From: an uncultured Candidatus Saccharibacteria bacterium
GTDB lineage: Bacteria > Patescibacteriota > Minisyncoccia > Phycocordibacterales > UBA918
Length of the DNA stretch: 64,000 nucleotides
Reading direction: 5' to 3'
NCBI GenBank assembly: GCA_964353135.1
Contig: CAYGTV010000001.1
Span: 18,696 to 82,695, forward strand
Shown: positions 14,122 through 61,838 of the stretch, one piece after another
Layout of the letters: every line of letters begins with the position of its first letter
Numbering within the stretch: position 1 is the first letter of the stretch
Program-made: the position numbers and the translations under genes
The notes under the pieces: model-generated
What the model was told of the DNA's origin: nothing
The model's input: only the letters and a program-made list of their open reading frames with translations
The model's database searches: none

Positions 14122-14862
14122 ATGTCAGACAAAAACTTAGTCAGCCGACTATTTGAAGCCGGCGCACACTTTGGCTTTAAAAAAGCTCGACGTCATCCAA
14201 CAGTGACACCATTCCTATACACTACCAAAGAAGGTAGTGATGTTATTGACCTTGCAAAAACTAGTGAAGCACTAGTAGCAGCCAAAGAAATGCTAAAAGA
14301 AGCAGGATCAATGGGCAAGACTGTTCTGTTTGTTGGAACCAAAGATGAGGTTGCAAAAATCGTTAAAAAAGCAGCTGAGAAAGTAGAAGCACCATACGTT
14401 ACCAACCGATGGATTGGTGGAATGCTAACAAACTGGTCAGAAATCAAAAAACGAATCAATCGTCTAGAGACACTAACCAACGAAAAAACAACTGGTGAGT
14501 TAGATCGTAAGTACACCAAGAAAGAGCGGGTAGTTATCGGACGAGAAGCAGCTAAACTAGAATTCAACTTCTTTGGAATTTCAAAAATGGCAAAAATGCC
14601 TGACCTAATGGTAGTAGTAGACCCGCGTCATGATCACATCGCGGTAGCCGAAGCAGTTGAGAAAAACGTACCGGTTATGGCCGTGATGAGTACCGATGGT
14701 GACGCAAGTATGATTGCGTACCCAGTCGTGGCAAACGATGCGTTGCAATCAAGTGTATCGCTAATTGTTGATGAACTAGTTGCAGCTTATGCAGAAGGGA
14801 AATCAGCTTTTGTACCAAAAGAAACTGCCCCAGCCGGCAACACCCGACGTCGAACTGCCTAG
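14122..14862 (+). CDS. rpsB: ribosomal protein S2
   Basis: MSDKNLVSRLFEAGAHFGFKKARRHP is a canonical S2 N-terminus; 246 aa. Confidence 0.9.
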   Translation: MSDKNLVSRLFEAGAHFGFKKARRHPTVTPFLYTTKEGSDVIDLAKTSEALVAAKEMLKEAGSMGKTVLFVGTKDEVAKIVKKAAEKVEAPYVTNRWIGGMLTNWSEIKKRINRLETLTNEKTTGELDRKYTKKERVVIGREAAKLEFNFFGISKMAKMPDLMVVVDPRHDHIAVAEAVEKNVPVMAVMSTDGDASMIAYPVVANDALQSSVSLIVDELVAAYAEGKSAFVPKETAPAGNTRRRTA

Positions 14863-14914
14863 ATAACTCTGGTATAATCGACCCGACTTACACACAAACT
14901 AATTGCTATTTGCT

Positions 14915-15499
14915 ATGGAAATTAACCCAACCCTACTAAAAGAACTACGAGACAAAACAGGCATCTCTGTGATGCAGTGCAAAAAGGCGCTTGAAGAAGC
15001 AGAAGGTGACATGGATAAAGCAGTCATCATTCTTAAAAAAAGGCGGGCAGAAGCAGCAGACAAGAAGTCTGATCGAGAGCTTGGCGCTGGTGCCGTTGGG
15101 GTATATGTACATAATACCAACGAAGTAGCTGCTATGGTATTGCTTGCCTGCGAAACGGACTTTGTTTCTAAGAATGAAGAGTTTATTGCGTTAGCAAAAG
15201 ACATTGCTATGCATGTTGCAGCCAGTGATCCAAAGTTCATCTCTAAAGATGAGCTCCCAGCCGATGCTACCGAAAAAGCGAAAGAAGTATTTGCGCCTGA
15301 ACTAGAAGGGAAACCAGAAGAGATGAAAGAAAAAATTATGGAAGGGAAACTGGCTTCATACTTTAAGGATCAGATCCTACTAGAGCAAGACTTCATCAAA
15401 AATCCAGAGCACACAATCGGTGAAATGGTAACTGGAGCGATTCAGAAGTTTGGTGAAAACGTATCTATCGCACAGATCTCTCGAGTGTCTGTAAAATAA
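14915..15499 (+). CDS. tsf: elongation factor Ts (short form)
   Basis: MEINPTLLKELRDKTGISVMQCKKALEEAEGDMDKA is the UBA-like N-terminus of EF-Ts. It directly follows rpsB. ATG at 14915; the track start at 14903 is TTG. Confidence 0.85.
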   Translation: MEINPTLLKELRDKTGISVMQCKKALEEAEGDMDKAVIILKKRRAEAADKKSDRELGAGAVGVYVHNTNEVAAMVLLACETDFVSKNEEFIALAKDIAMHVAASDPKFISKDELPADATEKAKEVFAPELEGKPEEMKEKIMEGKLASYFKDQILLEQDFIKNPEHTIGEMVTGAIQKFGENVSIAQISRVSVK

Positions 15500-15503
15500 C
15501 GTC

Positions 15504-15899
15504 ATGCTACTGATCCCGGTCAGTGTATTTGCCTCAGCTGCAGTTCTATTGACTGTGGCTTTGGTAGTCGTGAGTCGCGAGCAGCGGCGCAACGATCGAC
15601 TATTTTTAGGTCGACTGCGAAACTGGCTAGATCGGGTGTGCGAATCTACAGCAAGAAGTGCAAGGGGGTTTGTTCATGTGATCGCGATTTCAGTGATGTA
15701 TCTAGTTCATCATTTTCGCTCAGCCTTGTCCAAGGCTATTGCGCCCCGACCACGGCGCCCAAAAAAGCAGCCTGATCGATTGCAGTTTGAAAAAACTGAC
15801 AACCACCTTAGCTCAATGCACGAACATAAAAGTGATACCGCACTCACTCCAGCCCAAAAGAAAAAACTGCGCAACCAGAAACTAGAAGAAAGATTATAG
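15504..15899 (+). CDS. hypothetical small membrane protein with basic C-terminus
   Basis: N-terminal hydrophobic helix followed by an Arg/Lys-rich tail; no recognisable domain. Confidence 0.35.
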   Translation: MLLIPVSVFASAAVLLTVALVVVSREQRRNDRLFLGRLRNWLDRVCESTARSARGFVHVIAISVMYLVHHFRSALSKAIAPRPRRPKKQPDRLQFEKTDNHLSSMHEHKSDTALTPAQKKKLRNQKLEERL

Positions 15900-15924
15900 G
15901 CGCCCACGCGTCATAAAAATAACT

Positions 15925-17700
15925 ATGCAAACAGAAAACTACTCTGGAGATATTCCACGTACGCCGCTGCGGTTTATTGCGTACTTATCCAAGCCTTCAA
16001 AATGGTGGGCTATTACTTCGTTTGTAACTGCCGTTGCGGCTCAGTTGCTTGAAGTAGTAGCGCTATACGTTGTTGCTCGGTTTGTTGATGCATTTTCTGT
16101 CGCACAAGGAGTTACTGCGCAGCTAGATGCTTTCTACTATTGGGGTCTTGTCTTTTTGGGTGTGATTGTTGTCGAGCGAGCCCTATGGAGAGTTTCTGGT
16201 TTTACAGGAATCAAGTGGTTAGTTGAGATGAATGCCAATGGCTATAACACTTTATTTGAATATACTGTTTCGCATAGTCATAATTATTTTGCGAGTCGTT
16301 TTGCCGGTTCAATTTCAAACAAGGTTTCAAATGCGGTTGATGGTGCAACACGTCTGTTGGAGCGGCTGCTATGGGGGATGATTCCGCAGATCATTTCTCT
16401 GGTAATTGGTATCTATGTTTTCTTTACTGTTCATTGGTTAATGGGGGTTGGCTTTTTAACCTTCCTGGTGTTGGTGTTTATATTCAATGTTAAATTTACT
16501 TTGTGGCGTCGACCATACGTGGTTGATTATTCTCGTTCATCATCAAAAATGCGAGGAGAAGGGGTTGATCTGATGTCAAACATTTCCGCTGTTCGACAAT
16601 ATGCACACCGCGATAACGAACTAAGTCGTATCGCACTAGCAATTGAAGAGAGGGCTAGAAAAGATAAAAAGCAGTGGTTTCTGGGTGACTGGTTGATGGT
16701 GATCAACACGGTCTTTGGTCTGCTTGTCACAGCTGCAATTTTATACGGTACGTATGTAATGGTTGGGCAAAATGCAATAACGACAGGAACAGTAGTTCTG
16801 ATCCTAACGATTCTTGGGCGGGTTGGCTACGCCTTTACCCATATAGGCAACATGCTCAATAACTTTATTCGCTTATATGGTGAATCTGAAGAAGGCCTTG
16901 ATAGTATTTTGGTCGATCATGAAATTGTTGATACGTCTAATGCTAAACAGTTGGTGGCTGGTGGGGGAGCGATCGAATTTAGTGACACCTCGTTCTCGTA
17001 TGAAAAGAAGACTATCTTTGATGCCCTCAACATTAAAATCGAGCCCGGGCAGAGAATCGGGTTAGTGGGCCCCTCTGGTGCTGGGAAGTCGACACTAGTG
17101 TCACTGCTGCTTCGACAGCATGATATTGATGCAGGGGCGATTTTGATCGATGGCCAAAACATCGCTGAGGTGACTCAGGATTCACTGCGACAAAGCATTG
17201 CTCTAGTTCCACAAGAACCGATGCTGTTCCATCGCACCATTCGGGAAAACATCATGTATGGGAAACCAGACGCAACTGATGAAGAGATGGTGCAAGCAGC
17301 AGAACGTGCGCAAGCACGAGAATTTATCGAAGTCCTACCAAAAGGGTACGACACGCTGGTGGGAGAGCGGGGAGTGAAGCTCTCTGGTGGGCAAAAACAA
17401 CGAGTAGCGATTGCGCGAGCAATGTTAAAAGAAGCTCCTATTCTGGTGCTTGATGAGGCGACTAGTGCGCTTGATAGTGAAAGTGAGGTAGCGATCCAAA
17501 AAGCCTTAGAAACACTCATGGAAGGCAAGACAGTGATTGCGGTCGCACACCGATTGTCGACACTGCGCAAGATGGATCGTATCTTGGTAATCGACAATGG
17601 TCAGATTGTCGAAGACGGCACACATGACTCGCTCGCTGATGCTGGTGGCATGTATTCTAAACTGTGGGCGCACCAGGCTGGGGGATTTCTGCAGGAGTAG
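15925..17700 (+). CDS. ABC transporter, fused permease/ATP-binding protein (MsbA-like exporter)
   Basis: Six TM helices in the N-terminal half; Walker A GPSGAGKST; signature LSGGQKQRVAIARA; Walker B ILVLDEATSALD. Confidence 0.85.
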   Translation: MQTENYSGDIPRTPLRFIAYLSKPSKWWAITSFVTAVAAQLLEVVALYVVARFVDAFSVAQGVTAQLDAFYYWGLVFLGVIVVERALWRVSGFTGIKWLVEMNANGYNTLFEYTVSHSHNYFASRFAGSISNKVSNAVDGATRLLERLLWGMIPQIISLVIGIYVFFTVHWLMGVGFLTFLVLVFIFNVKFTLWRRPYVVDYSRSSSKMRGEGVDLMSNISAVRQYAHRDNELSRIALAIEERARKDKKQWFLGDWLMVINTVFGLLVTAAILYGTYVMVGQNAITTGTVVLILTILGRVGYAFTHIGNMLNNFIRLYGESEEGLDSILVDHEIVDTSNAKQLVAGGGAIEFSDTSFSYEKKTIFDALNIKIEPGQRIGLVGPSGAGKSTLVSLLLRQHDIDAGAILIDGQNIAEVTQDSLRQSIALVPQEPMLFHRTIRENIMYGKPDATDEEMVQAAERAQAREFIEVLPKGYDTLVGERGVKLSGGQKQRVAIARAMLKEAPILVLDEATSALDSESEVAIQKALETLMEGKTVIAVAHRLSTLRKMDRILVIDNGQIVEDGTHDSLADAGGMYSKLWAHQAGGFLQE

Positions 17701-17774
17701 GTTCCAGCACCTGTATGCAAAGCATACACAGTGGCCTCACTCGATAATAAACACGCTTGATCACAGATCAAGCT

Positions 17775-17836
17775 AAACTAAAAGAAAAACTGCCAGAATT
17801 ACACTTATGTAATTCTGGCAGTTTTTCTTTTAGTTT
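17775..17836. terminator. 29-bp perfect inverted repeat (4-nt loop) between the convergent ABC exporter gene and tRNA-Thr; bidirectional terminator
   Basis: aaactaaaagaaaaactgccagaattaca ctta tgtaattctggcagtttttcttttagttt; A-run on the 5' side and T-run on the 3' side. Confidence 0.6.
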
Positions 17837-17871
17837 CTCGCCATTGGCTCGATTTACTATCCTCGTATCGG

Positions 17872-17944
17872 AGCCACCTGTCAGGCTCGAACTGACGACC
17901 TACGCGTTACAAATGCGTTGCTCTACCAACTGAGCTAAGGTGGC
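17872..17944 (-). tRNA. tRNA-Thr (anticodon UGU)
   Basis: The reverse complement folds as a cloverleaf: 7-bp acceptor GCCACCT/AGGTGGC, D-arm GCTC..GAGC, anticodon loop TTTGTAA, T-arm GTCAG TTCGAGC CTGAC, discriminator U; no encoded CCA. Confidence 0.8.
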
Positions 17945-18122
17945 GTATTAAACTGTATATTCTCTTCAGATCTTGTAAGCTTCTACCAACTGCAGCTGCC
18001 GGTGGCGCATTTCTGGTACGCGCCATTATGACCAAAAACAGCAAAAAATGCAACTGGGTACATTGAATTGCGGGTAAAACCCTTTATTTTCTAGCAAAAC
18101 AACGCTATACTCGACATTACTC

Positions 18123-19676
18123 ATGAGCGAAGACTCTCATCTATTGCCATATGCTCGTCGTGCTGATTTTAAAGTCGCTCGGGCAACTGAACTAACGGGT
18201 CGCGACCGTCGGTTTTATCGGTTCCTAGAAATTGTCCCTGGGGTGGCTGCCTGGGGGACATTGATCGGGATAGTGTGGGCATCGATCTATGCGTCCTTTT
18301 TTGCGGCGTACTTCATCATTGCCTTTGCTATCTATTGGGTTTTGAAAACCATCTTTCTGTCCTACCACGTACGGTATAACTGGAAACGCCTCAAACATCA
18401 CATGGAATTGGACTGGGGTGTATTGGTTTCTCGATTTGAATATGATGAATATCATCACTTAGTGATCTTTCCATTTTATGAAGAGCCTTATGAAGTGCTC
18501 GAGGGTGCCATGAAAGGTTTAATAGAAGCCAACTATGATCCGCAAAAACTGATTGTTGTCCTGGCAGCAGAGGGTCGAGTCGGTGCATCAGCTATAGAAA
18601 AAGCAGATCGAATCGCAGCCGAGTTTGGTTCCAAATTTGGAAACTTCCTAGTATCGGTGCATCCCCAAGACACCCCTGGAGAGATCGCTGGAAAAGGTTC
18701 AAATGTGCATTATGCTTTACATCAGGTACATAACAAAGTAATTGCCCCACAACACATCTCACATAAAAACATCCTTGTATCTATTTTTGATGTCGATACA
18801 GTCATTTACCCAGATTACTTCAACTGTCTAATTTGGCATTTTATGACCGCCGAGAATCCATACAAAAGTGCGTTCCAGCCAGTACCGTTGTTCACAAACA
18901 ACCTATGGGAAGCTTCTGCCGTATCGCGTGTGATGGCGATGTCTAGTACATTTTGGCAAATGATCATGCAAGAGCGACCAGACAAAGCCGCAACGTTCTC
19001 GTCGCACTCAGTTAGTTACCAGGCACTGTATGAGATCGGGTATGGCCAAGCCAACGTAGTGAGTGAGGACTCGCGCATCTACTGGAACCTACTTTTGGCC
19101 AACGATGGGTATTTTGACGTGGTGTCACTGTCGTACCCGATTGCGATGGATGCAACCACAGCAGCAAGCACGTGGGGAACAATTAAAAATATCTATAAGC
19201 AGCATCGTCGCTGGACGTACGGGGTAGAGAACTGGTGCTACTTGGTGTATCACTTCTCTAAACACAAGGCGATCCCGTTGCGACGTCGCTGGTCCATCGC
19301 TCTACAGCAAGGGGAAGGGTATTGGTCACTAGTAACCAACCCAATCATGCTGTTTATTTTGGGCTGGACGCCGATTTTCCTCGGGTCACGAGAATTCCAT
19401 GAAACCGTACTATCGTACGAGTTACCAATCATGGTTCGTAACCTACTGACTGTAGCCATGCTCGGTTTAGTTTTTTCTTCAATTATTTCACTGTCACTTA
19501 CTCCGCCGCGGCCTGAGGGATACAGCCGGTTCCGCTACGTCGTAATGGCGCTGCAGTGGATTATGGTTCCAATCACGATGATTGTGTTTAGTGCGATCCC
19601 TGGGCTCGATGCCCAGACTCGCTTGATGCTCGGTCGATATATGGGATTTTGGGTCACACCTAAACGGTTACAATAG
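18123..19676 (+). CDS. processive family-2 glycosyltransferase (membrane-embedded polysaccharide synthase-like)
   Basis: N- and C-terminal TM segments flank a GT2 core with the D,D,D motifs (FDVDT) and the QxxRW motif (QHRRW) typical of cellulose/chitin/hyaluronan-type synthases. Confidence 0.7.
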   Translation: MSEDSHLLPYARRADFKVARATELTGRDRRFYRFLEIVPGVAAWGTLIGIVWASIYASFFAAYFIIAFAIYWVLKTIFLSYHVRYNWKRLKHHMELDWGVLVSRFEYDEYHHLVIFPFYEEPYEVLEGAMKGLIEANYDPQKLIVVLAAEGRVGASAIEKADRIAAEFGSKFGNFLVSVHPQDTPGEIAGKGSNVHYALHQVHNKVIAPQHISHKNILVSIFDVDTVIYPDYFNCLIWHFMTAENPYKSAFQPVPLFTNNLWEASAVSRVMAMSSTFWQMIMQERPDKAATFSSHSVSYQALYEIGYGQANVVSEDSRIYWNLLLANDGYFDVVSLSYPIAMDATTAASTWGTIKNIYKQHRRWTYGVENWCYLVYHFSKHKAIPLRRRWSIALQQGEGYWSLVTNPIMLFILGWTPIFLGSREFHETVLSYELPIMVRNLLTVAMLGLVFSSIISLSLTPPRPEGYSRFRYVVMALQWIMVPITMIVFSAIPGLDAQTRLMLGRYMGFWVTPKRLQ

Positions 19677-26810: not shown

Positions 26811-26828
26811 AAGCTGTACTTTGTTGGA

Positions 26829-26895
26829 CTGCGAAAAAAGCCGCTCACTGGACACTTGTCCCATTCGCGGCTTTTTGCATGCCCGCCGCATACAG
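26829..26895. repeat. structured terminator-like repeat element, copy 1 (downstream of gyrB)
   Basis: About 88% identical over 66 nt to 61775..61838. Outer stem AAAAAGCCGC/GCGGCTTTTT encloses inner hairpin GGACActtGTCC. Flanked by a perfect 20-bp inverted repeat at 26792..26811 and 26899..26918. Confidence 0.7.
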
Positions 26896-28050: not shown

Positions 28051-28149
28051 AGTTGACGTATAGTAGCATAGATTACACGAATGTCAACATTAAAATGTCG
28101 CTTTGTCTAGGTTGGTCATTGACGGGTAAATCTGTAGGGAAGATAAACA

Positions 28150-28178
28150 TTGACAATTACAATAAATAGTGCTACTAT
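28150..28178 (+). promoter_or_regulatory. sigma70-like promoter of the sortase gene (TTGACA-17-TACTAT), implying a leaderless or very short-leader mRNA
   Basis: TTGACA at 28150-28155, a 17-nt spacer, TACTAT at 28173-28178; the first in-frame ATG of the sortase lies at 28189. Confidence 0.45.
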
Positions 28179-28188
28179 CCTATGCATT

Positions 28189-28884
28189 ATGCATTTTTCT
28201 GACACTGTAAAAGCCATCTGGGCTAATAAAATAAGCTTCTTTGGAGTATTCTTCATTATTTTTACCGTTCTATACACGGTACTTTTCCTAGTTGATTTTC
28301 TCCCAGAGGCACCCGAAGCTAGGCCAGCTACAACCGAAGTAACTGAAGTTGCTTCGGCTGTAGACGTTGCGCCAGTGGTAATCCAGACACCAGCGGTTGC
28401 AGAGTCAGAATTGGTAGCTGAAACAGTCGTTAGTGCATCAGCACCTGATATGCCAATTAGTATTTATATTGAACGACTCGACAAGACAATCGATGTGTTG
28501 AACCCACAATCACGATCAATTGCTGATCTCGATAACGCTCTATTGTCAGGAGTGGTGCGACACCCAGACTCTGCGACACCTAATATTGATGGAAATGTAC
28601 TGATCTTAGGACACTCTAGTTATTTGCCAAATGTTCTCAACAAGAACTTTCAGGCTTTTAACGGCGTTCAAAACCTAGAATGGGGTGATACGATCACGAT
28701 AACTTCAGAAAATGCAGTGTATACCTACCGGGTAGAGCGGGTATATGAAGCACGAGCGAGTGAAATCACCGTTCCAATTGCTGGCGACGCAAAACTACTT
28801 ACTCTAGCGACCTGTGATAGTTTTGGAAGTGTAGATGACCGTCACATCGTAGAAGCCAAGCAAATTAGCGTTGAATTGCTGTAA
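28189..28884 (+). CDS. sortase family transpeptidase
   Basis: N-terminal TM anchor; catalytic His in LILGHSSY; TLxTC-type Cys motif LTLATCDSF; conserved Arg 10 residues downstream (VDDRH). Confidence 0.75.
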   Translation: MHFSDTVKAIWANKISFFGVFFIIFTVLYTVLFLVDFLPEAPEARPATTEVTEVASAVDVAPVVIQTPAVAESELVAETVVSASAPDMPISIYIERLDKTIDVLNPQSRSIADLDNALLSGVVRHPDSATPNIDGNVLILGHSSYLPNVLNKNFQAFNGVQNLEWGDTITITSENAVYTYRVERVYEARASEITVPIAGDAKLLTLATCDSFGSVDDRHIVEAKQISVELL

Positions 28885-28920
28885 AAGCGACATTTTACCT
28901 ACATATATTAGAATACAAAA

Positions 28921-28950
28921 GAAAGCACTTGACAAGAGTGCTTTCTTTTG
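28921..28950 (+). terminator. terminator hairpin after the sortase gene, overlapping the next promoter
   Basis: gaaagcact tgacaag agtgctttc followed by ttttg; the 7-nt loop contains the -35 hexamer TTGACA of the downstream promoter. Confidence 0.5.
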
Positions 28951-28957
28951 CTATAGT
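28929..28957 (+). promoter_or_regulatory. consensus sigma70 promoter (TTGACA-17-TATAGT) driving the small lipoprotein gene
   Basis: TTGACA at 28929-28934, a 17-nt spacer, TATAGT at 28952-28957; the downstream gene has an AGGAG ribosome-binding site 7 nt before its ATG. Confidence 0.5.
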
Positions 28958-29022
28958 ACTAGACATAAAGAAACCAAGATCCTTAGGGCAAAGTGCTCAG
29001 ATCTTCAAACAGGAGACGCAAA

Positions 29023-29400
29023 ATGCGTATTACGACAATTTTGGCAGCAGCTGCTGTATCACTCTCTGCTTGTGCATCGTTTGATGGTTCTCGAGGCATC
29101 ACTGCTGCCTACGTCGAAGGTGATCGGGTCATTGTCGAAACGGTCTCCGGACGTATTGGCGATTTTCCAAAATATCGGATGTGCACATGGGCGCACATCA
29201 ACATCGATCAGGAGGAGAGTTACCGGCTTCGCGCTAACCGCGATTCGACCGAACGGAGTATCCTTGGGGTCACAATCGAGGGTCTCGATTGTCCGTTTGT
29301 CAAACCACGCGAAGGTTCGGGCGGCGGCGGTGTCCGGCAGACAGACTTCGTTGAAGACACAAATCCGACCAATGACCAACCATCACGTGGTCAGCAGTAG
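29023..29400 (+). CDS. small putative lipoprotein (Cys-containing, secreted)
   Basis: MRITTILAAAAVSLSAC is a signal peptide with a lipobox-like LSAC; strong promoter and ribosome-binding site; lies in a local GC-rich stretch (about 60% versus about 45% background). Confidence 0.5.
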   Translation: MRITTILAAAAVSLSACASFDGSRGITAAYVEGDRVIVETVSGRIGDFPKYRMCTWAHINIDQEESYRLRANRDSTERSILGVTIEGLDCPFVKPREGSGGGGVRQTDFVEDTNPTNDQPSRGQQ

Positions 29401-29534
29401 TAAGAATACAACCCCTCCAGCAAAACATCGCTGGTGGGGTTGACTTTTTATATTATGTGTGCTAATCTTGTAGAAATCAAGTACAGGACCAAAGAGACCT
29501 TTGACTTCAAATTTTCACAGCCTTGGAGGGCATC

Positions 29535-30065
29535 ATGGAAAAAATCTATACATTACTGGCAGGTGCTTTCCTTACGGTAATCACTTGTGTCGCCGCCGCC
29601 GCGCCGACAACAGTTGAGGCTCAAACAGCCCCAACCACAACTTCTGAATGTGTTTCAGTCGTTGTCGATCTCTACTGCCAAAAAGCTCATGATGGTCTGT
29701 TTATTGGAGACCGGGAGGTAGAAACCGTTCAAATCACGGTTTGTGCACTTCCCGAACACTGGGCCGCAATCCAACGCCAAGACCCCAACGATTCATGGTG
29801 GGGAGAGGCGCTAGCGGACACAGGCCGCCCTGATCTGCGATGGCTCAAGATCCGAGCAATCAAGGAGCAGTGTCGCATTCGTCATGCACCAATCGGTGCA
29901 CGAGTCGGTACGAGATACCTCTGCCCACCAACAGTCGAGGGTTGGTATTGGACAGAGGTTGTGACTGGACCTGGGACATACTTCATGTCTATTCCGGTAT
30001 CAGACACCACTCCAAATCCAGCCAACCCAGACCCGGATGAGAACGTCCCAGCTCTCATTGGTTAA
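29535..30065 (+). CDS. small secreted Cys-containing hypothetical protein
   Basis: MEKIYTLLAGAFLTVITCVAAAAPTTVEAQ signal peptide; GGAGG ribosome-binding site 7 nt upstream of the ATG at 29535 (the track start at 29523 is TTG); same GC-rich patch. Confidence 0.5.
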   Translation: MEKIYTLLAGAFLTVITCVAAAAPTTVEAQTAPTTTSECVSVVVDLYCQKAHDGLFIGDREVETVQITVCALPEHWAAIQRQDPNDSWWGEALADTGRPDLRWLKIRAIKEQCRIRHAPIGARVGTRYLCPPTVEGWYWTEVVTGPGTYFMSIPVSDTTPNPANPDPDENVPALIG

Positions 30066-30199
30066 GTGAAAAGTAGATCGGCTGTAAAGGCCGATCTACA
30101 TGAATCAAACTGGATTCAGACGAGTTGTTACGACAACTCTTTTAATCCGATTTTATTCGGTGCAGACAAATTTAGAAACAAATTACTTACAATATATTT

Positions 30200-33100
30200 A
30201 TGAAAACAATCTCACAATCATTTATTTTCGCTGGAATCGTACTTGCACTACTTGCTGGTGTATTTGCTTTTTCTGCAATGACTGCTGATGCCTATGGTTC
30301 AAGTTGTGGATCATGTGATGCACCTGACACAGGTGGAGGAAGTATCGGTGGTGGAGGCGGTGGATCTACTCCACCTTCTGTTACACCCCCAGTTTGTGAT
30401 ATCGATGTAGATCTAGACGTTGTAGCAGTTGGAGAATTTTACACCATTGACTGGAATGTTATTTCAGCATCTCCAGTTAACGTATACATCAACGGTGACC
30501 ATGTAGAAAAGACAGGGGAAGCAACTTATGATTTTCTTGCCTCAACACCAGAACTAGAATTTTTCAATCTAACAGCAGAAAATGCTGGAGGTACATGTTC
30601 TGATCGAGTTGAGATTAGAAAAAAAGTAGTCGAAGAAAAGAAATGTGAACTTGAAATCACAAAATCTGTCGACAAGCACTCAGCTACACCTGGAGAAGAA
30701 CTAACGTACGAGATCAAAGTTGAAAACATTGGTACAGCTGACTGTACTGGAGGAGGGGTTAAGATCGAAGACGTTCTAGACACTAACTTTGAGTACGTAA
30801 GTAATACCTACACCAGTAACCTGACAGAAGGCTACGGATCTGCACCCGTTTATACAGCCTCTACCCGAACAATTCGATTCAATGGAAACACTCTTACTCC
30901 AGGTGAATCAGGAACTATCGTACTATTTGGAAAAGTGGCGACACCACACACATGTGGAGACTTTGAAGTAAAAAACCAAGCTTTTGCCACGGCTTTCGAA
31001 CTAGATAACTTTAATGACTGGGTATACAGTAATGTCGTAAAGACTAACGTTGACTACGATTGTGAAGTGCCTGCGCCACTATGTACGTCATTTACAGCTA
31101 CACCTGGAACTCTTCCAGCAGCTGGTGGAACAGTGGTTCTTGATTGGGACCTACTAAACGTAGCGACTGCTGTAATCGACAACGGAGTTGGAGAAGTGCT
31201 TGCTAATGTTGGATCAAATTATGGTTCAGTTTCTGGGTCACAAACAACGGTCGTAACACAATCAACTACATTTACCTTAACGGCAACAGATGTGGACGGA
31301 GACAAAACTACCTGTAAAGCGCCAGTAACTGTACCAACAGACAATCCTACACCACCACAATGTCCACTAGTCGCAAAAGACGGTCGAACAATTGTAAATT
31401 TCTCAGGAATGAAACTGCGAACTGACCGAACTGCTAACGATGCAGTAACAGCAATCCAATCAGCCGCATTCCCAGTTGGGGAGTATGACATCACGCTTGT
31501 TTCTTGGGACGGATACACCAATCGTGTAAACGCTTCACAGCCAAACGAACAGTGGAAACTAGAGTTCATGAACGGTTCAGCAGTGATTGCTGGATCAGGA
31601 ATCATCGGTGATCTAGCTGATAACGTGATCGAAGCAACAAAGATTGAGCAGGTGAACACGGATTTCACGTTAGCAACTGCAGCGACCGGCGTACGAGCAA
31701 TCCACCCATTCTACCCAGCGTCATCACCAAACAGTCTGTACCCAATTTGTGCAGCAATTGATGAAAAACCGAAAGAAGTAGTGCCACCATCATGTGATAT
31801 GTTCACCGCTACACCGGCGACTATCACAGTTGGAGGAACAGCTACCCTTGCATGGGAATCAACCAACGCTGTCCAAGCATTCATCAACAACGCAATCGGC
31901 GCAGTGGATGTAGACGGAACTATCGAAGTGTCACCATTAGCTGATACAACCTACGTCCTAACACTGATCGGTGCAGAAGATAATACTGTTAACTGTAACG
32001 TACCGGTGAAAGTTGTAGATGAGCCAGTCATGGAATGTGTCGCATTTACTGCGAGCCCATCAGCTCTACCAGTAGGAGGTGGAAACACAACTCTTGCGTG
32101 GGAAGTAATCAACGCAGTATCGGTATCAATCGATAACGGTATTGGCGCGGTTGCACTAACTGATACGCGGGTTGCAGCAGTAACAGAGTCAACGACCTAC
32201 ACCCTCACAGCAACTGATGCTGATGGTGATACAGTTTCATGTATCGCGCCAGTGGCTGTAGCTGATCCGGGAGTGTTTACGTGTGAAGACAACGTCTCAT
32301 TCTCTGCAAGTGATACATCTATCACTCGAGGACAAAGTTCAACTCTTAATTGGGATGTAACAGATGCTGATTCAGTATCTATCTCAGGAATTAGTGCTAC
32401 TACCTTTACTGGTTCACAATCAGTATCACCATCAAGTGACACTACCTATACACTGACAGCAACAAAATCAGGCTTTGAAACTATCTCATGTCCAGTAAAG
32501 ATCAACGTATCTACTGGCGGTGGGGGAGGTGGTACACCAACACCACGTTGTGAACTAGAGATTTCTGACACTCGGATCAACGCTGGAGACGAAATCACAC
32601 TAACGTGGGATTCAACTAACGCTCGAGAACTGACCCTAACTGATAACTTTGGCAACACCCTCGTTACGACAGAAGATAAACTAAGTCGTGATAAAGATGA
32701 TTTGTTTGAAGGAAGTATTGATTTGAACCCAACTCGAAACACAACGTATACACTCCTAGTTGAGCGAGGTTCACGAGATCGAGAATGTGAAGTTAAAGTT
32801 GAAATGGATGATGACGTTGTGCTACTACAGGTTCGAGACCAAGCTCCACTAGTGTCAGGTATCTCGCTAACGCAAGTGCCGTACACCGGATTTGAAGCGG
32901 GACCAATCATGACAGTACTGTTCTACATGCTACTTATCACGTGGGCGCTATACATCACCTATGTACTGGTGATGCCAAAAGCACAGCTTGCAATGGTTCC
33001 AGTAAAGAACAGTTCACTGCGAACTAACGAAGACCTCATGCAACATGCAGAGCAAATTCGACCAGATGTGTTTGCCGCCGTATCAGCCGCACCAGTTGTG

Positions 33101-33703
33101 GAGGTACCAGCTAATCTACCGGTTGCGACTACTCATGTAGCGATGCCAGTAGTTGCCGAAATTCCAGACACAAACACAATTGAAAACCAGGCACATGCAT
33201 TGCAAGCACTTATTTCAAGTGATGCGGCGCGAACTATTGCTGCTATGACTAACGAGTCAAACCAAGCAGAAGTGCTACGGAAAATTGTAAATGATGCGAA
33301 GGGACAATTCCCACTAGAAGACGGATGGGTTGTAATCAACCAATCGCGTCTAGCACAAATCACAGATACTACTACTACAACAGTGTCTCCGTCACCAACA
33401 GGTGCTGGTTCACTAGCGGAAGCTATCGTGACTGGTAACGTTGTTGCAGCGTACAATCTAGTTGGCACTCGACCAATGATCGCGCTAGCAGATGCCGCTG
33501 CTGACCTTGATGCAGTGTACCGAATTAAAAAAGGTGCAGACGCAACAGTTTCAGACATGCTTGCTACAGAAACAGAAAATCTTTCAGAAGGAAAGATCGC
33601 AGAAATGATTGCTGCCCTAACTGGAGCCCTCGACGGAACCTACACCGACGAAAGCTCAGCTGTGAAAATGGCTATCATGAAAGCGGTACAGATTGCTGGA
33701 TAA
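30200..33703 (+). CDS. giant cell-surface protein: signal peptide, DUF11-like domain, at least 6 Cys-bracketed Ig-like repeats, VPYTG sorting-like motif plus TM, then a ~230-aa C-terminal extension
   Basis: Signal peptide; KSVDKHSATPGEELTYEIKVENIGTADCTGGGVKIEDVLDTNFEYVSNTYT resembles DUF11/TIGR01451; repeats of the form C..F.A.P......G...L.W...NA....I.NG.G.V......TTY.LTAT...G....C.APV.V; SLTQVPYTGFEAGP followed by a TM helix at about aa 900. Confidence 0.7.
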   Translation: MKTISQSFIFAGIVLALLAGVFAFSAMTADAYGSSCGSCDAPDTGGGSIGGGGGGSTPPSVTPPVCDIDVDLDVVAVGEFYTIDWNVISASPVNVYINGDHVEKTGEATYDFLASTPELEFFNLTAENAGGTCSDRVEIRKKVVEEKKCELEITKSVDKHSATPGEELTYEIKVENIGTADCTGGGVKIEDVLDTNFEYVSNTYTSNLTEGYGSAPVYTASTRTIRFNGNTLTPGESGTIVLFGKVATPHTCGDFEVKNQAFATAFELDNFNDWVYSNVVKTNVDYDCEVPAPLCTSFTATPGTLPAAGGTVVLDWDLLNVATAVIDNGVGEVLANVGSNYGSVSGSQTTVVTQSTTFTLTATDVDGDKTTCKAPVTVPTDNPTPPQCPLVAKDGRTIVNFSGMKLRTDRTANDAVTAIQSAAFPVGEYDITLVSWDGYTNRVNASQPNEQWKLEFMNGSAVIAGSGIIGDLADNVIEATKIEQVNTDFTLATAATGVRAIHPFYPASSPNSLYPICAAIDEKPKEVVPPSCDMFTATPATITVGGTATLAWESTNAVQAFINNAIGAVDVDGTIEVSPLADTTYVLTLIGAEDNTVNCNVPVKVVDEPVMECVAFTASPSALPVGGGNTTLAWEVINAVSVSIDNGIGAVALTDTRVAAVTESTTYTLTATDADGDTVSCIAPVAVADPGVFTCEDNVSFSASDTSITRGQSSTLNWDVTDADSVSISGISATTFTGSQSVSPSSDTTYTLTATKSGFETISCPVKINVSTGGGGGGTPTPRCELEISDTRINAGDEITLTWDSTNARELTLTDNFGNTLVTTEDKLSRDKDDLFEGSIDLNPTRNTTYTLLVERGSRDRECEVKVEMDDDVVLLQVRDQAPLVSGISLTQVPYTGFEAGPIMTVLFYMLLITWALYITYVLVMPKAQLAMVPVKNSSLRTNEDLMQHAEQIRPDVFAAVSAAPVVEVPANLPVATTHVAMPVVAEIPDTNTIENQAHALQALISSDAARTIAAMTNESNQAEVLRKIVNDAKGQFPLEDGWVVINQSRLAQITDTTTTTVSPSPTGAGSLAEAIVTGNVVAAYNLVGTRPMIALADAAADLDAVYRIKKGADATVSDMLATETENLSEGKIAEMIAALTGALDGTYTDESSAVKMAIMKAVQIAG

Positions 33704-33758: not shown

Positions 33759-33819
33759 GTTTTAGGCTTATTAAATTATCACGCTGACAGAAAACTCAAT
33801 GCGTATTATGATGTAAGTA

Positions 33820-38427: not shown

Positions 38428-41400
38428 TTACGCTCTAATAGTCTGCGTGTCAACCGACTCAACAAATTCCGGCTCTGGCCCCAACCGTTTCATTCGGTCT
38501 ACCAAAATACTTGGTTCGTCGTTGCGGATGTTGAGCTTGCCTTTGACGGCAACACAGGTGCCTGGGACGAGCATTTCGCGGTGAGCTTCGAAACACTCAG
38601 GGAAGGTGACCATTTCCATCGACTCGTCCTTGGTCGCCAGCTGTACAAACGCCATTTTGTCGCCTTTTTTAGTGATCAACTCACGAACCGCCTGGATCAT
38701 ACCGGCCGTTACAACTGGGATACCTTGTCGACCATCAGCTTTTACCGTCGAGAGAGGTGAGCGTTTTTTGATTTCATCGGTAAAAGCATCAAGCGGGTGA
38801 CCAGACACGTATACTCCAAGTAGGTCTTTTTCCCAGATCAATTTTTGCTCTTTGCTGATGTCTGTCGCTGGGTACAGGGTCAGTCCGCCGACTTCCGTCA
38901 TCGCTCCAAATAGTGAGTCTTGATTGGCTGCTTTGCCAGCCACTTGTTCTTTGTTGTAGGACAGGAGTACCTCTAGGTTGCCGTACAGCGTGTCACGGGT
39001 TTCAAACCGATCAAACGCTCCGGTGCAGATCAGGGCTTCCATTGATTTTTTATTGAGAGCTCGATCATGAATCCGTTCCAGGAAATTTTGCATGGATGTA
39101 AACGGTCCGTTAGCTTTTCGATCATCAATGATTGTTTGTGCGATCCCCGCACCAAAGTTTTTGATAGTAGTTAAACCAAACCGAATGGTTTGGGTACCTG
39201 GTACCACGGAAAAGTCAGCGAATGATTCGTTGATGTCTGGCGGTAGTACGTCGATACCCATTCGTTCACATTCATGGATCGAGTCGTAAATCCGGTCGGT
39301 ATCACCCGAGTCAGCCGTGAGTACCGCTGACATGTATTCGACGGGAAAGTTCGCCTTCATATAAGCAGTCTGGTAGGCAACTCGACCGTATGACGCCGCG
39401 TGGGCCTTGTTAAATCCGTACGCAGCAAATGGTTCGATCAGTTTCCATAACTGTTCAGCTTTTTGTTCGGTCATGCCGTTGTCGATCAATCCTTGGAAGA
39501 GTTTATCTTTCTCGGCGGCCATTACTTCGGGAATTTTCTTTCCCATCGCTTTACGCAATTTGTCAGCCTCAAGCCAGCTGTAGCCAGCTAGCTTAATCGC
39601 CGTCATCATCACGTCATCCTGGTAGGTGATCACCCCGTATGATCGATCAATGATTTCTTCCAGACGTGGGTCGAGGTATGTCACTAAACTAGGGTTGTGT
39701 TTTCGTTCAATATATTGAGGGATCATTTCCATCGGACCAGGGCGGTATAGGGCCACCATCGCGTTGATGTCGTGAATGGTGGTTGGTTTCAGTTGTTTCA
39801 GGAACGACGTCATTCCGGTACCGTTCAATTGGAATAGTCCCATCGTTTCACCCCGAGCCAGCATCTCAAACGTCTTTTGGTCATCGAGGGGAATGTTTTC
39901 AATATCGACGTCGACGTTACGAATTTTCTTTACTCGCTTTACTGCATCAGCCAAAATCGCCAGGTTTTTAATCCCCAGGAAGTCGAATTTAAGGAGACCA
40001 ACTCCGTCTTCACCCACACTATGCATTTCGTACTGGGTGACGTATTTACCAGTTTTCGAGTCGGGCTGGATTGGGACATATTGGTTGAGTGGAACAGGAG
40101 AGATAACCACCCCCGCGGCATGAACCCCAATGTGTCGGACACGACCCTCGATTTGTTTGGCAAGGTCAATCACTTCGCGCGACTCAGCGTCTTTTTTGTA
40201 TAACTCAGCCAATTCTTTTTCTTCTACCAGCGCGCGCTCAATGGTCATCGGGAACCCCTGGGCGCCCAGGGGGATTAGTTTCGAGATCCGGTCACCAGTA
40301 CTGTACGGGTGACCAAGGGCGCGCGCCACGTCACGTACCGCCGCTTTGGCGGCCATGGTTCCAAAGGTACCGATCTGGGCTACTTTGTCTTCACCATATT
40401 TTTGTTTGGCGTATTCGATAATTTCATCACGTCGATTATCGGCAAAGTCCATGTCGATGTCAGGGGCAGACGGACGCTCAGGGTTAAGGAATCGTTCAAA
40501 GGGAAGTTTGTATTCGAGCGGGTTTACGTTCGTGATCCCCAGCACGTAGGTCGTAAATGATCCCGCCACCGAACCACGAATAGTGGTGAGGATTCCTCGT
40601 TCACGCGCCTCGCGCAGCAGGTCACCTACCACGAGAAAGTACTTGGCGTAGCCCTTCATCTTGATCACATCCAGCTCGTAGTCGAGACGGGTTTTTACCT
40701 TCTCATCAGTAATGTCGAGTCCGCGCCACTTCACTCCAGCGTACGCGGTGATTTGTAGCTCTTCGTCCGGCTCGCGCCCGCTTTCGATTATAAAATCAGG
40801 AAATACCCAAGCATCCATCCCGAGGGTGATTTCGACGTTACACTGGTTGGCAATTTTGACAGTATTAGAAAGCGCTTCTGGAGTGTCTTTGAACCACTCT
40901 TTCATGTCGGCTTGGGTTTTGAAAGAGAAGTCTTCGGCTCCATCGTGATCAGACGATGTATCAACCACACCGCCACTTTGAATCTTGATCATTGTCTCTC
41001 GAGCGATGCGATCCTCTGGCTTCATATAGTAAATATCGTGCGCGGCGACCAGTGGAGTTTTTGTTTCAGCTGCCAATTCTTTGATCAGCTTCTGGTTACT
41101 CATGTGACCAAAAATCTCTGGGTGGTGACTGATTTCAAGGTAGCAATCCGCGCCGAACGTTTTCTTGTACCAATCAAGCCGCTCCGCTGCGCGTTCTGGT
41201 AGCGAGTCTTTGAGGGCTTGGGCAACTTCGCCGGCAAACGAGGGGATGATGCAGATGAGGTCTTCTTTGTTTTTCTCCAGCAGTTCATCATCAATCCGGG
41301 GTTTGTAGTAGAAGCCTTCGGTGTTTGACTTGGTGACCAGCTCAATCAGGTTTTGGTAACCCTTAAACGTTTTAGCCAGCAAAACCAGTCGTGACCGTGG

Positions 41401-45435: not shown

Positions 45436-45876
45436 ATGTATAGCAAACGTCTAGGTTTTACATTGATTGAGATTCTCGTTGTTATTTCAATTTTGGCAAT
45501 ACTCCTGTCCATCGTTGCTTTTTCTGGTTCTGAAGCGCGCTCTACTGCCAATGCAACGGTGGCTGATCAGGATGTTCAGCAAATTGGACTAGCGATGCAG
45601 CTGTATCTAGAAGCTAACAATGACCTCCCTCCAGATGCTACTTGGAGTGATGCTGTTGATGCGCTGTACCCGACCTATTTATCAAAGCGCATCGATGTCG
45701 ATCGGTGGGGAAATGCCTTTGAGTACCAAAACAACTATGGTGGCGGGATTTCCAGTCGGGGGTCCCTGGTTTGTAGTTCTGGTCCTGATGGAACATTTGA
45801 TACTACTGACACTGATCTAGCTGTATACGAAGCTGGCGGGGATGATATCTGCCGATTTATTTTTGATGAAGATTAG
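45436..45876 (+). CDS. type IV pilin / pseudopilin (prepilin-type N-terminal cleavage/methylation domain)
   Basis: MYSKRLG|FTLIEILVVISILAILLSIV is a class III signal peptide with the G/F cleavage site and Glu+5. Confidence 0.7.
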   Translation: MYSKRLGFTLIEILVVISILAILLSIVAFSGSEARSTANATVADQDVQQIGLAMQLYLEANNDLPPDATWSDAVDALYPTYLSKRIDVDRWGNAFEYQNNYGGGISSRGSLVCSSGPDGTFDTTDTDLAVYEAGGDDICRFIFDED

Positions 45877-46615
45877 TATGTTCCTACGCTCATCCAAAAG
45901 AGGTTTTACAATAATTGAATTGCTAGTGACAGTTTCTTTGTTGGTTATTTTGCTCAGCATTGCAATTGCAAGTTTTGGTCCAGCAAGAGAGAAATCACGA
46001 GATACCCAACGGCAGACAGACTTACGAACGATCGAAGCAGCGTTGGCTCTGTATAAAAATAAATATGGTGTATATCCAGAAGGTTGCAATGGTCCGACTA
46101 CCAGTGCAACTCCCGTGTGGTCAGGTCAATTGGGGTCTGATTATGAATGTACGTCTGGAGGACGTCAGTTTATCATTGGTCTTGCTCCAGAGTTTTTACC
46201 GAAATTGCCAATCGACCCTAAACTGAATGGTACTGATTCTGGTTATGTGTATGCGGTAAACAGCGAGCGATCGGTATACAAAGTCATGGCTCTAAATACC
46301 GTTGAAACTGAGGTGGTTGGTTACGGTGATGAGTTTTTCCGTTGTGGACAAGAGTTTAATCCTGTCTTGGTATCAACTGATAGTAGTGTCGGTGCATCCT
46401 ACAATGATCCTGAAATATGCGAACGAGTTCCACCGACCCTTCCAGGTGGATATAATCCAGGAGGTTACACCGCTCCGACTGTGTGTACTGGTGTTGATGG
46501 TTATGGTGCCACGTATGCCGTATCTGCCGGATTTTCTAATGATGCCAGGGGTCTCTCTGGTGTTAATGCTAATAAGGGTCGTGAATACGACACTGAAAAC
46601 GTACGGTGTCGGTAA
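45866..46615 (+). CDS. type IV pilin-like protein
   Basis: MKISMFLRSSKRG|FTIIELLVTVSLLVILLSIAIA prepilin signal. Start uncertain: ATGs at 45866 and 45878; the track ORF begins at 45842. Confidence 0.65.
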   Translation: MKISMFLRSSKRGFTIIELLVTVSLLVILLSIAIASFGPAREKSRDTQRQTDLRTIEAALALYKNKYGVYPEGCNGPTTSATPVWSGQLGSDYECTSGGRQFIIGLAPEFLPKLPIDPKLNGTDSGYVYAVNSERSVYKVMALNTVETEVVGYGDEFFRCGQEFNPVLVSTDSSVGASYNDPEICERVPPTLPGGYNPGGYTAPTVCTGVDGYGATYAVSAGFSNDARGLSGVNANKGREYDTENVRCR

Positions 46616-46664
46616 GGGATAACTGTTTTAACCCGTTCAGCTACAGTGCTATCATGAGTATATT

Positions 46665-47258
46665 ATGCAACGGCTAAGAGGCTTTACTCTGATTGAAATT
46701 CTCGTCACAATTTCGATTATTGCGATTTTGGCTAGTATTATCTATGTTAGTTTTGGGGAGGCTCGGGTTAATGCCCGCAACAAAGCTATGACAGTTGAGT
46801 TGAAAGAAATCCAGCTGCAGCTCGAGACCTACCGGGCTCAAAATAATTCTTATCCATTGCCAGAACCTGGCTGTGGTAGCGCAACTGGGGGTCAGCTAGT
46901 GGCACGTAGTAATGGTTCTGGTAGTTGGTGTTCAAATAACTACTTCAACACCAGTGCAGCCCGACAAACTCCGTTATTTGTACCTGAATTTGTCACCAAA
47001 ATACCAAAGAACGCTGATTCTGCAAATTCGGACTGTGTGATTGAGTACCGCACCGACAGCGCAGCTACTTGGTATAAACTAACTGCGATTAACTGCCTTG
47101 CTGGTGTAGATAGTAGTACTGGGATTGACCCGGGAGAGCCGCTGTCACGCTGCTCCTCATCTTGTCCTGAGGGGTCGTCAGGTGATACTTGTTATCCAGA
47201 TGATCCAGAATACTATCAGTCATTTGCGGTCTACAGCCTCGGCGGTCAGTGTGAATAG
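46665..47258 (+). CDS. type IV pilin-like protein
   Basis: MQRLRG|FTLIEILVTISIIAILASIIYV prepilin signal; C-terminal Cys pairs. Confidence 0.7.
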   Translation: MQRLRGFTLIEILVTISIIAILASIIYVSFGEARVNARNKAMTVELKEIQLQLETYRAQNNSYPLPEPGCGSATGGQLVARSNGSGSWCSNNYFNTSAARQTPLFVPEFVTKIPKNADSANSDCVIEYRTDSAATWYKLTAINCLAGVDSSTGIDPGEPLSRCSSSCPEGSSGDTCYPDDPEYYQSFAVYSLGGQCE

Positions 47259-61754: not shown

Positions 61755-61774
61755 TACCACCTACTTCGTTATGC

Positions 61775-61838
61775 TACGCAAAAAGCCGCTCACTGGGCAT
61801 TCGCCCCATTCGCGGCTTTTTGCTTGCCCTCCTTACAG
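61775..61838. repeat. structured terminator-like repeat element, copy 2 (downstream of rpoC)
   Basis: Outer stem AAAAAGCCGC/GCGGCTTTTT with inner hairpin GGGCattcGCCC; paralogous to 26829..26895 with compensatory inner-stem changes. Confidence 0.7.

Follow-up and report, generated by a model that had tools for sequence, protein, structure and literature searches.

Two genes for predicted small exported proteins in a variable sortase-locus slot of a probable Paceibacterota bacterium

We analysed a 64,000-nucleotide (nt) stretch of DNA, hereafter the window, and focused on a GC-rich patch of about 1.1 kb (28990-30070) that lies between a sortase gene and the gene of a giant surface protein. The patch is best explained as two small exported-protein genes of a Candidatus Paceibacterota bacterium, which appear to be transcribed separately, occupy a slot that recurs between sortase and giant protein in related genomes, and would encode accessory proteins of the cell envelope; we place the probability of this reading at about 0.6. 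The first open reading frame (ORF), ORF1 (29023..29400, + strand; 125 amino acids (aa), ATG to TAG), encodes a predicted lipoprotein with the lipobox LSAC and Cys17. The second, ORF2 (29535..30065, + strand; 176 aa, ATG to TAA), encodes a protein with a signal peptide that is probably cleaved after VEA (residues 27-29). An earlier reading of the same DNA, made without database searches (the sequence-only reading), had proposed two small exported cysteine-containing proteins here, one of them lipoprotein-like with an LSAC motif, and the coordinates, the signals and the ratio of nonsynonymous to synonymous substitution rates (dN/dS) confirm this.

According to the proposed mechanism, ORF1 would be strongly expressed from a near-consensus promoter and its product tethered to the membrane as a lipoprotein, while the ORF2 product, Sec-secreted and carrying five conserved cysteines, would probably be disulfide-bonded. 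Both proteins would act as accessories of the envelope or surface layer beside the giant VPxTG protein that the sortase presumably anchors. Their site of action would probably be where the presumed episymbiont meets other cells, and surface exposure would account for their fast evolution. We infer the accessory role because both proteins have export signals, conserved cysteines, this position and fast divergence. Lineage-specific exported proteins of a variable surface-protein locus are a familiar kind, to which the pair adds a member. In other respects it is ordinary: two hypothetical proteins with export signals, whose genes have terminator and promoter modules that are compact and conserved. 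The analysis defines a conserved locus in which a sortase gene is followed by a slot that may or may not contain genes for small exported proteins, and then by the gene of a giant VPxTG protein. Surface molecules of the Candidate Phyla Radiation (CPR) beyond type IV pili are poorly known, and the slot proteins, including the five-cysteine family of ORF2, are candidates for surface or host-contact factors.

The two genes, their products and their expression signals

Homologues of ORF1 and ORF2 were found at 63-74% amino-acid identity on short metagenomic contigs. Identity at third codon positions was 0.42-0.52, compared with 0.75-0.86 at positions 1 and 2, and dN/dS was 0.07-0.19 (0.07-0.15 for ORF2), compared with 0.11 for the sortase, with dS above 1. 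Since the codon-position identity and dN/dS are comparable to those of the sortase, both ORFs are real genes under purifying selection. The three overlapping stop-free frames to which the sequence-only reading had drawn attention, 28871-29443 (+), 28993-29400 (+) and 29059-29379 (-), are all present, and the alternative frames are by-products of the local GC content.

The N-terminus of ORF1, MRITTILAAAAVSLSAC, is positively charged and continues into a hydrophobic stretch, and LSAC at residues 14-17 matches the lipobox pattern [LVI][ASTVI][GAS]C. Among its homologues, protein P0002 has LSAC and P0003 has TAGC, a looser match (P-numbers denote homologous proteins in the alignments, and L-numbers the related loci or contigs that were compared). 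ORF1 is thus predicted to be a membrane-tethered lipoprotein: it resembles bacterial lipoproteins of the Lgt/LspA pathway in its charged N-terminus, hydrophobic stretch and lipobox, but differs from them in having no sequence relative among known lipoprotein families. The mature protein has two conserved cysteines (C54, C90); it comprises a small domain rich in beta structure and a tail that is disordered and rich in G, T, P, N and Q. Its AlphaFold2 (AF2) model was poor, with a predicted local distance difference test (pLDDT) score of 57; in it, residues 26-86 form a beta-rich core and the tail is disordered.

A full HMMER profile scan of 1.84 billion representatives recovered only the cluster of ORF1 itself. 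No curated family matched, and the sole PHROG match (E = 5e-4, unknown function) fell on a glycine-rich stretch, of which no part passed by itself. Profile-profile comparison of ORF1 with other first-in-slot families was not significant; a 'GLDCPFVK'/'GVTCPVIK' match in a MAFFT alignment was, given these tests, not accepted as evidence of homology. ORF1 is an orphan, confined to its immediate lineage.

By inspection, the N-terminus of ORF2 consists of MEK, a 20-residue hydrophobic stretch, and VEA followed by Q, that is, an n-h-c arrangement with an AxA-like site. VEA or AEA followed by Q is kept in the homologues P0005 and P0006, and ORF2 is predicted to be Sec-secreted. Its close homologues are 67-74% identical, and profile iteration in the fetched loci yielded a family of 15 members, including the ORF2 of the window. 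This is the largest of the slot-gene families and takes in the second small ORF of L008. The family has five conserved cysteines (C39, C48, C70, C113 and C130), four of them invariant and the fifth nearly so, through which ORF2 is probably disulfide-bonded. The 14 other members are located directly 3' of this sortase or, where a short contig lacks it, next to the giant protein or to a homologue of ORF1. Searching the ORF2 profile against 5.8 billion proteins added only a few more unnamed proteins, which had no Pfam domain; two of these, whose contigs were inspected, are further members in the same slot context. With its five cysteines, the ORF2 family is unannotated and, as far as its members were located, confined to this slot.

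ORF2 had no match in Pfam, NCBIfam, PADLOC, PHROG or PDB sequences, and profile-profile tests of its family against the second slot genes of L012/L039 and L026/L034 were not significant. Its AF2 model was unusable (pLDDT 37); each ORF was modelled from an alignment of just 3 sequences, at a stage when the wider ORF2 family had yet to be recognised. Overall, the search for homologues and structural matches that the sequence-only reading had recommended returned a family for ORF2, left ORF1 an orphan and gave no structural match for either.

According to Meheust et al. (2019, PMC6744442), CPR bacteria are enriched in sortase (fam000526) and also in an MdbA-like thiol-disulfide oxidoreductase, accompanied by VKOR, that serves exported proteins. 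This envelope toolkit offers a route for oxidising and displaying exported cysteine proteins, and the five conserved cysteines of ORF2 fit a client of it; the paper itself describes neither the slot nor the small proteins reported here. The window ORFs that were scanned included no oxidoreductase.

Each gene is preceded by a compact set of putative expression signals. Immediately after the sortase stop codon lies a terminator-like hairpin (28913..28954, + strand; -20.8 kcal/mol, z = -6.9), and none of 200 shuffled sequences was as stable. The ORF1 promoter, a sigma-70-type site with an extended -10 element (TTGACA-17-TG-n-TATAGT; 28929..28957, + strand), is nested in it: the -35 hexamer is made up of the 5-nt hairpin loop, GACAA, together with the two uppermost U pairs. 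With 11 of 12 consensus matches, it is the best sigma-70-like site on either strand of the 64 kb, in which only 10 sites reach 10/12. The hairpin is kept in L002 through one compensatory change of a G-C to an A-T stem pair. L002 has the same -35 hexamer, TTGACA; the -10 block TGCTATAGT is unchanged in L002 and in L001, whose contig starts downstream of the -35 element. A consensus terminator scan did not call this hairpin because the T-run lies partly within the stem, where an A-run further upstream pairs with most of it. The ORF1 5' leader (28958..29022, + strand) contains conserved blocks (CATAAAGAAA, GATCTT) in a three-taxon alignment, which gave no covariation-supported consensus RNA structure for it. 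An Rfam scan found only a tRNA and no family at the leader. The leader includes a Shine-Dalgarno sequence, AGGAG (29011-29015), 7 nt upstream of the ORF1 ATG.

A similar arrangement precedes ORF2. The terminator-like hairpin after ORF1 (29409..29442, + strand; -23.2 kcal/mol, z = -6.3), with a T-run downstream at 29445-29449, is identical in L001 and L005. Its final 3 nt overlap TTGACT (29440-29445), the -35 element of a candidate ORF2 promoter (TTGACT-17-TG-n-TAATCT; 29440..29468, + strand). This promoter was read from the sequence and the alignment and falls below the threshold of the promoter scan; its -10 element is weak in the window (TAATCT) and reads TAGTAT in L001 and L005. GGAGG (29525-29529) lies 5 nt upstream of the ORF2 ATG. 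As a hairpin and a promoter are packed into the short spacer ahead of either gene, ORF1 and ORF2 look like separate transcription units. The sequence-only reading had identified the two strong ribosome-binding sites, the ORF1 promoter and the position of its -35 hexamer at the apex of the post-sortase hairpin, and was right on all three. A further hairpin follows ORF2 (30073..30099, + strand; -19.4 kcal/mol, z = -7.6); it has a T-run on the - strand only, and the scan scored it as terminator-like on that strand.

Composition and turnover of the slot

To describe the composition of the patch, we used the 64-kb window and its 48 ORFs as the baseline. The patch has 51.2% GC compared with 46.2% for the window, about +2.3 standard deviations (SD) and within the top 0.7% of same-size windows. 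The 60-nt spot counts on which the sequence-only reading had based its claim of a GC-rich patch hold, with 43.3% at 45481-45540, but values of 62-67% are local 60-nt peaks only (patch maximum 66.7%), and dnaE (about 39700-41300) is as GC-rich as the whole patch. ORF1 and ORF2 have the highest total GC of the 48 ORFs (53.4% and 52.7%; z = +2.6 and +2.3), chiefly owing to codon position 2, i.e., amino-acid composition (z = +1.9). In the codon-usage comparison that had been suggested, GC at third codon positions (GC3) is no outlier: it is 0.49 in ORF1 and 0.46 in ORF2, against a mean of 0.416 (SD 0.06; z = +1.3 and +0.7), within the housekeeping range and below that of dnaE (0.54). Most of the GC excess in the window stems from amino-acid composition; the excess is not a sign of recent foreign origin.

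Examining related loci revealed that the slot as such is GC-rich. We delimited it as the interval from the sortase stop to the next ORF of at least 400 aa (28885-30199 in the window) and compared 27 loci (L008, L012 and L026-L090). Slot ORFs were GC-richer than the ORFs of at least 200 aa of their own locus in 27/27 cases, on average by 0.09 in GC and 0.18 in GC3, and slot DNA including spacers was GC-richer than the remaining locus in 26/27. Compared with other ORFs of 95-280 aa in the same loci, slot ORFs had a GC3 higher by 0.16 (in 23/24). A caveat to these comparisons is that the selection of ORFs in loci outside the window was mechanical and may have taken in sequences that are not genes. 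Slot GC3 followed the relation 0.94 x host GC3 + 0.195 (r = 0.46, p = 0.004), and a slope of 0.94 means that the offset follows the host rather than a fixed donor value. The pair in the window stands at the weak end of this clade-wide excess. Expression-linked codon bias was considered as a cause and rejected, since the genes of S2, EF-Ts and L32 are low in GC3; a candidate cause is GC-biased conversion, with the slot undergoing recombination. The excess, seen in all 27 loci, cautions against equating a local GC peak with horizontal transfer, and constitutes a testable compositional anomaly worth following.

A genome scan with the sortase alignment produced 80 loci, of which L012 was the best match (74% identity). 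Their titles are nearly all Candidatus Paceibacterota, Paceibacteria, Parcubacteria, Kaiserbacteria, Nomurabacteria or Patescibacteria, and some carry the label 'uncultured Candidatus Saccharibacteria'. Judged by these relatives, the host is a Candidatus Paceibacterota (Parcubacteria, CPR) bacterium. PMC11623550 describes cultivated CPR/Patescibacteria as living attached to other microbes.

The content of the slot varied considerably. Of 66 loci in which the sortase is followed by a large ORF, 28 had an occupied slot: 14 contained one slot ORF, 11 contained two and 3 contained three, while 38 contained none. Most slot ORFs encode proteins of 100-280 aa whose N-terminus is hydrophobic and which contain 2-10 cysteines; a lipobox is present in at least 8, and by BLAST the ORFs fall into many families. 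The order sortase-ORF1-ORF2-giant protein is kept in L001, L002, L003 and L005. Comparing related loci, another check put forward in the sequence-only reading, therefore gave a mixed answer: the genes are present on L001-L005 at 63-74% identity and are replaced by different slot genes in L012, with no genome above 90% identity across the flanks among those compared.

Across the ORF2 family, identity correlated with that of the sortase (Pearson r = 0.51, Mantel p = 0.001), a correlation driven by close pairs. For example, ORF2-like and sortase identities were 78% and 73% between L075 and L094, 68% and 79% between L066 and L067, and 54% and 91% between L054 and L092. The correlation indicates that, over short times, the ORF2 family is passed on together with the locus; it diverges several-fold faster than the sortase.

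Alternative explanations

Several observations weigh against reading the pair as envelope accessory proteins of a recurrent slot. L012, the closest genome by sortase, has two unrelated small exported proteins in its slot, one a lipoprotein and one secreted, which implies that inheritance is not purely vertical over longer times and that slot content changes. As 38 of the 66 loci have no slot gene, the slot proteins are dispensable for sortase function. No family match, usable structure or fold match of the models indicated a function for ORF1 or ORF2. The functional tie to the sortase or the giant protein is drawn from gene order, and the promoters and terminators are putative, read from consensus matches plus conservation.

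The sequence-only reading had attributed the patch to horizontal acquisition, i.e., to the recent insertion of a foreign GC-rich 1.1-kb cassette into the surface-protein locus. The total GC of the two ORFs, the highest of 48, would fit such an event, as would the lack of ORF1 relatives beyond the immediate lineage, the patchy occurrence of the ORF2 family among related genomes and the different slot proteins of L012, the nearest genome by sortase. We nevertheless consider it improbable, and the claim found no support. Three to four divergent relatives (dS above 1) carry both genes at this position, conservation extends to the regulatory spacers, and ORF2 identity tracks sortase identity among close relatives. 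GC3 lies in the host range, with the excess mostly at codon position 2, and across loci it follows the host. Recent foreign origin is also unlikely because slot genes are GC-rich in nearly every related genome examined. No homologue was found beyond the slot context in 5.8 billion proteins (ORF1, ORF2) or 1.84 billion (ORF1 profile). Similarly, the patch bears no repeats, tRNA or integrase: in the 64-kb window, no repeat touches 28900-30200 and the sole tRNA is at 17870-17944, and there are no mobility genes beside the patch, whose neighbours are housekeeping or surface-protein genes. A diversity-generating retroelement target was likewise considered and rejected, as no repeat of at least 30 nt involves ORF1 or ORF2; no reverse-transcriptase ORF was found among the annotated neighbours in the window.

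The turnover of the slot invites a different account, in which it is a hot-spot of exchange whose cassettes are swapped among Paceibacterota through homologous recombination in the conserved flanks, with GC-biased conversion or a shared cassette pool raising GC3. Its zero to three genes from many unrelated families, the unrelated genes flanked by close sortases (window versus L012) and the GC3 excess in 27/27 loci (23/24 against other small ORFs of the same locus) all agree with this, and the low GC3 of highly expressed housekeeping genes leaves ordinary codon selection without explanatory power. However, ORF2 tracks the sortase in the three closest pairs, so exchange must be infrequent on short time scales, the GC3 excess of the genes in the window is small, and the ORFs of the other loci, having been chosen mechanically, may include some that are not genes. 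We regard this account as possible but unlikely.

Equally tentative, and held with little confidence, is the broader proposal that the slot is a dedicated site of cell-surface variation, where unrelated small exported-protein genes are gained, lost and replaced. A slot-specific process, either recombination with GC-biased conversion or selection on transcripts, would keep GC3 about 0.2 above that of the host whatever the host GC, and ORF1 and ORF2 would be the current set of one lineage, tuning the contact of the presumed episymbiont with other cells. Replacement-type flexible genomic islets, which encode exposed surface structures, likewise have conserved flanks and variable content. The slot is like them in its conserved flanks (sortase and giant protein), its zero to three apparently exported genes and its deviant composition, but it spans only about 0.7-2.2 kb, and its deviation is toward higher GC and tracks host GC3. 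We found no description of the slot or of these proteins in the literature.

Two further explanations concern function. ORF2 could be a secreted toxin or bacteriocin-like effector directed against hosts or competitors, with ORF1 as its lipoprotein partner or immunity factor. The proteins are indeed small, secreted by prediction, cysteine-stabilised, fast-evolving and lineage-specific, each gene has strong expression signals of its own, and a lipoprotein ORF followed by a second small exported-protein ORF recurs, e.g., in L012, L026 and L075. This is nonetheless doubtful: there was no match to a toxin, immunity, defence or phage family, ORF2-family genes often lack an ORF1-like partner (L057, L061, L066), the locus has no maturation or export gene (an ABC transporter with a peptidase), and dN/dS among close relatives is low rather than diversifying.

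That the proteins are sortase-polymerised pilus or accessory subunits, or sortase substrates, is least likely of all, and we give it hardly any weight. Their position between the sortase and its presumed substrate would agree with it, as minor pilins are similarly placed in Gram-positive pilus loci. Neither ORF1 nor ORF2, however, has an LPxTG/VPxTG motif ([LVISA]PxTG), a C-terminal hydrophobic helix or a charged tail, and an xPxTG string occurs in only 2 of 49 slot proteins, in neither case at the position of a sorting signal, whereas both large neighbours do carry VP[YE]TG and a helix. The lack of a sorting signal in both proteins makes a pilus subunit or an adhesin tip, both among the suggestions of the sequence-only reading, unlikely. 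The locus resembles Gram-positive sortase and pilus clusters in that a sortase adjoins a large repeat-rich protein with xPxTG and a helix, with small exported-protein genes in between. It differs from them in that its small proteins, being without sorting signals, are not pilins or substrates, its sortase falls below the class A-F cut-offs, its 1167-aa protein runs about 250 residues past the helix, and its host belongs to the CPR.

Borders of the slot and the wider window

The upstream border of the slot is the sortase gene (28189..28884, + strand; Pfam PF04203 Sortase, E = 1.8e-17). The ORF as listed begins with TTG at 28150, and the probable start is the ATG at 28189. The protein is 74-78% identical to its counterparts in L012 and L002 and 45-58% identical to those of about 80 Paceibacterota genomes. 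It contains a conserved 'LGHSSYLPNV...FQAFNG' block. It falls below every NCBIfam class A-F cut-off, scoring at most 40 bits against cut-offs of 140-165 (classes C, D, E and GN), and may belong to a CPR-specific class because it lies so far below them.

The downstream border is the giant surface protein of 1167 aa (30200..33703, + strand), with DUF11/CARDB-like repeats and, at residue 893, VPYTG plus a transmembrane helix; it is the presumed substrate of the adjoining sortase. VP[YE]TG followed by a hydrophobic helix is present in both large neighbours, the 1167-aa protein (VPYTG) and the next, 595-aa protein (VPETG), and large homologous proteins come after the sortase or the slot in nearly all related loci. 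About 250 residues (893-1167) extend beyond the motif and helix of the giant protein, presumably as a cytoplasmic tail, an arrangement that differs from the canonical C-terminal sorting signal. The tail closes with a conserved 'FPLEDGWVVIN' segment. The observation also takes in L006 (14491-16119) and L008 (15742-18408). In L006, whose GyrB is 91% identical, a 542-aa surface-protein paralogue occupies the position of the slot (14491-16119). This paralogue and the next, 800-aa protein (16348-18750) share a near-identical C-terminal module (GGGGGSSSPRCELYVSDASINAGD...), a sign that an internal duplication may have occurred recently.

The window belongs to the core genome, with pheT, gyrB, thrS, dnaE, RNase HII, L32, NusB, RNase III and type IV pilin-like genes. 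The gene order is pheS-pheT-gyrB-CARDB-like protein (minus strand)-sortase-[slot]-giant surface protein-thrS-dnaE, and the gyrB...thrS-dnaE block is kept in L006, L008, L092 and L094. In relatives sharing the gyrB-to-dnaE order, GyrB is 91% identical and the sortase merely 52-56%.

In the window, three strong promoter-like sites end only 8-11 nt short of a start codon: 28087..28060 (-) lies ahead of the CARDB-like gene (ATG 28050), 28150..28178 (+) ahead of the sortase gene (ATG 28189) and 33784..33812 (+) ahead of the gene of the 595-aa surface protein (ATG 33820). This suggests that these three genes have leaderless mRNAs, in contrast to ORF1 and ORF2, with their leaders of about 60 nt and strong Shine-Dalgarno sites. 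Elsewhere in the window, N-terminal methylation (type IV pilin-like) motifs are found in three successive genes (45436-47258). Finally, a 71-nt element is present in two copies with 83% identity, one directly after gyrB (26817-26887) and the other after a 1230-aa ORF (61762-61832). It holds a GC-rich hairpin between A5 and T5 (AAAAAGCCGC...GCGGCTTTTT) and looks like a bidirectional terminator.

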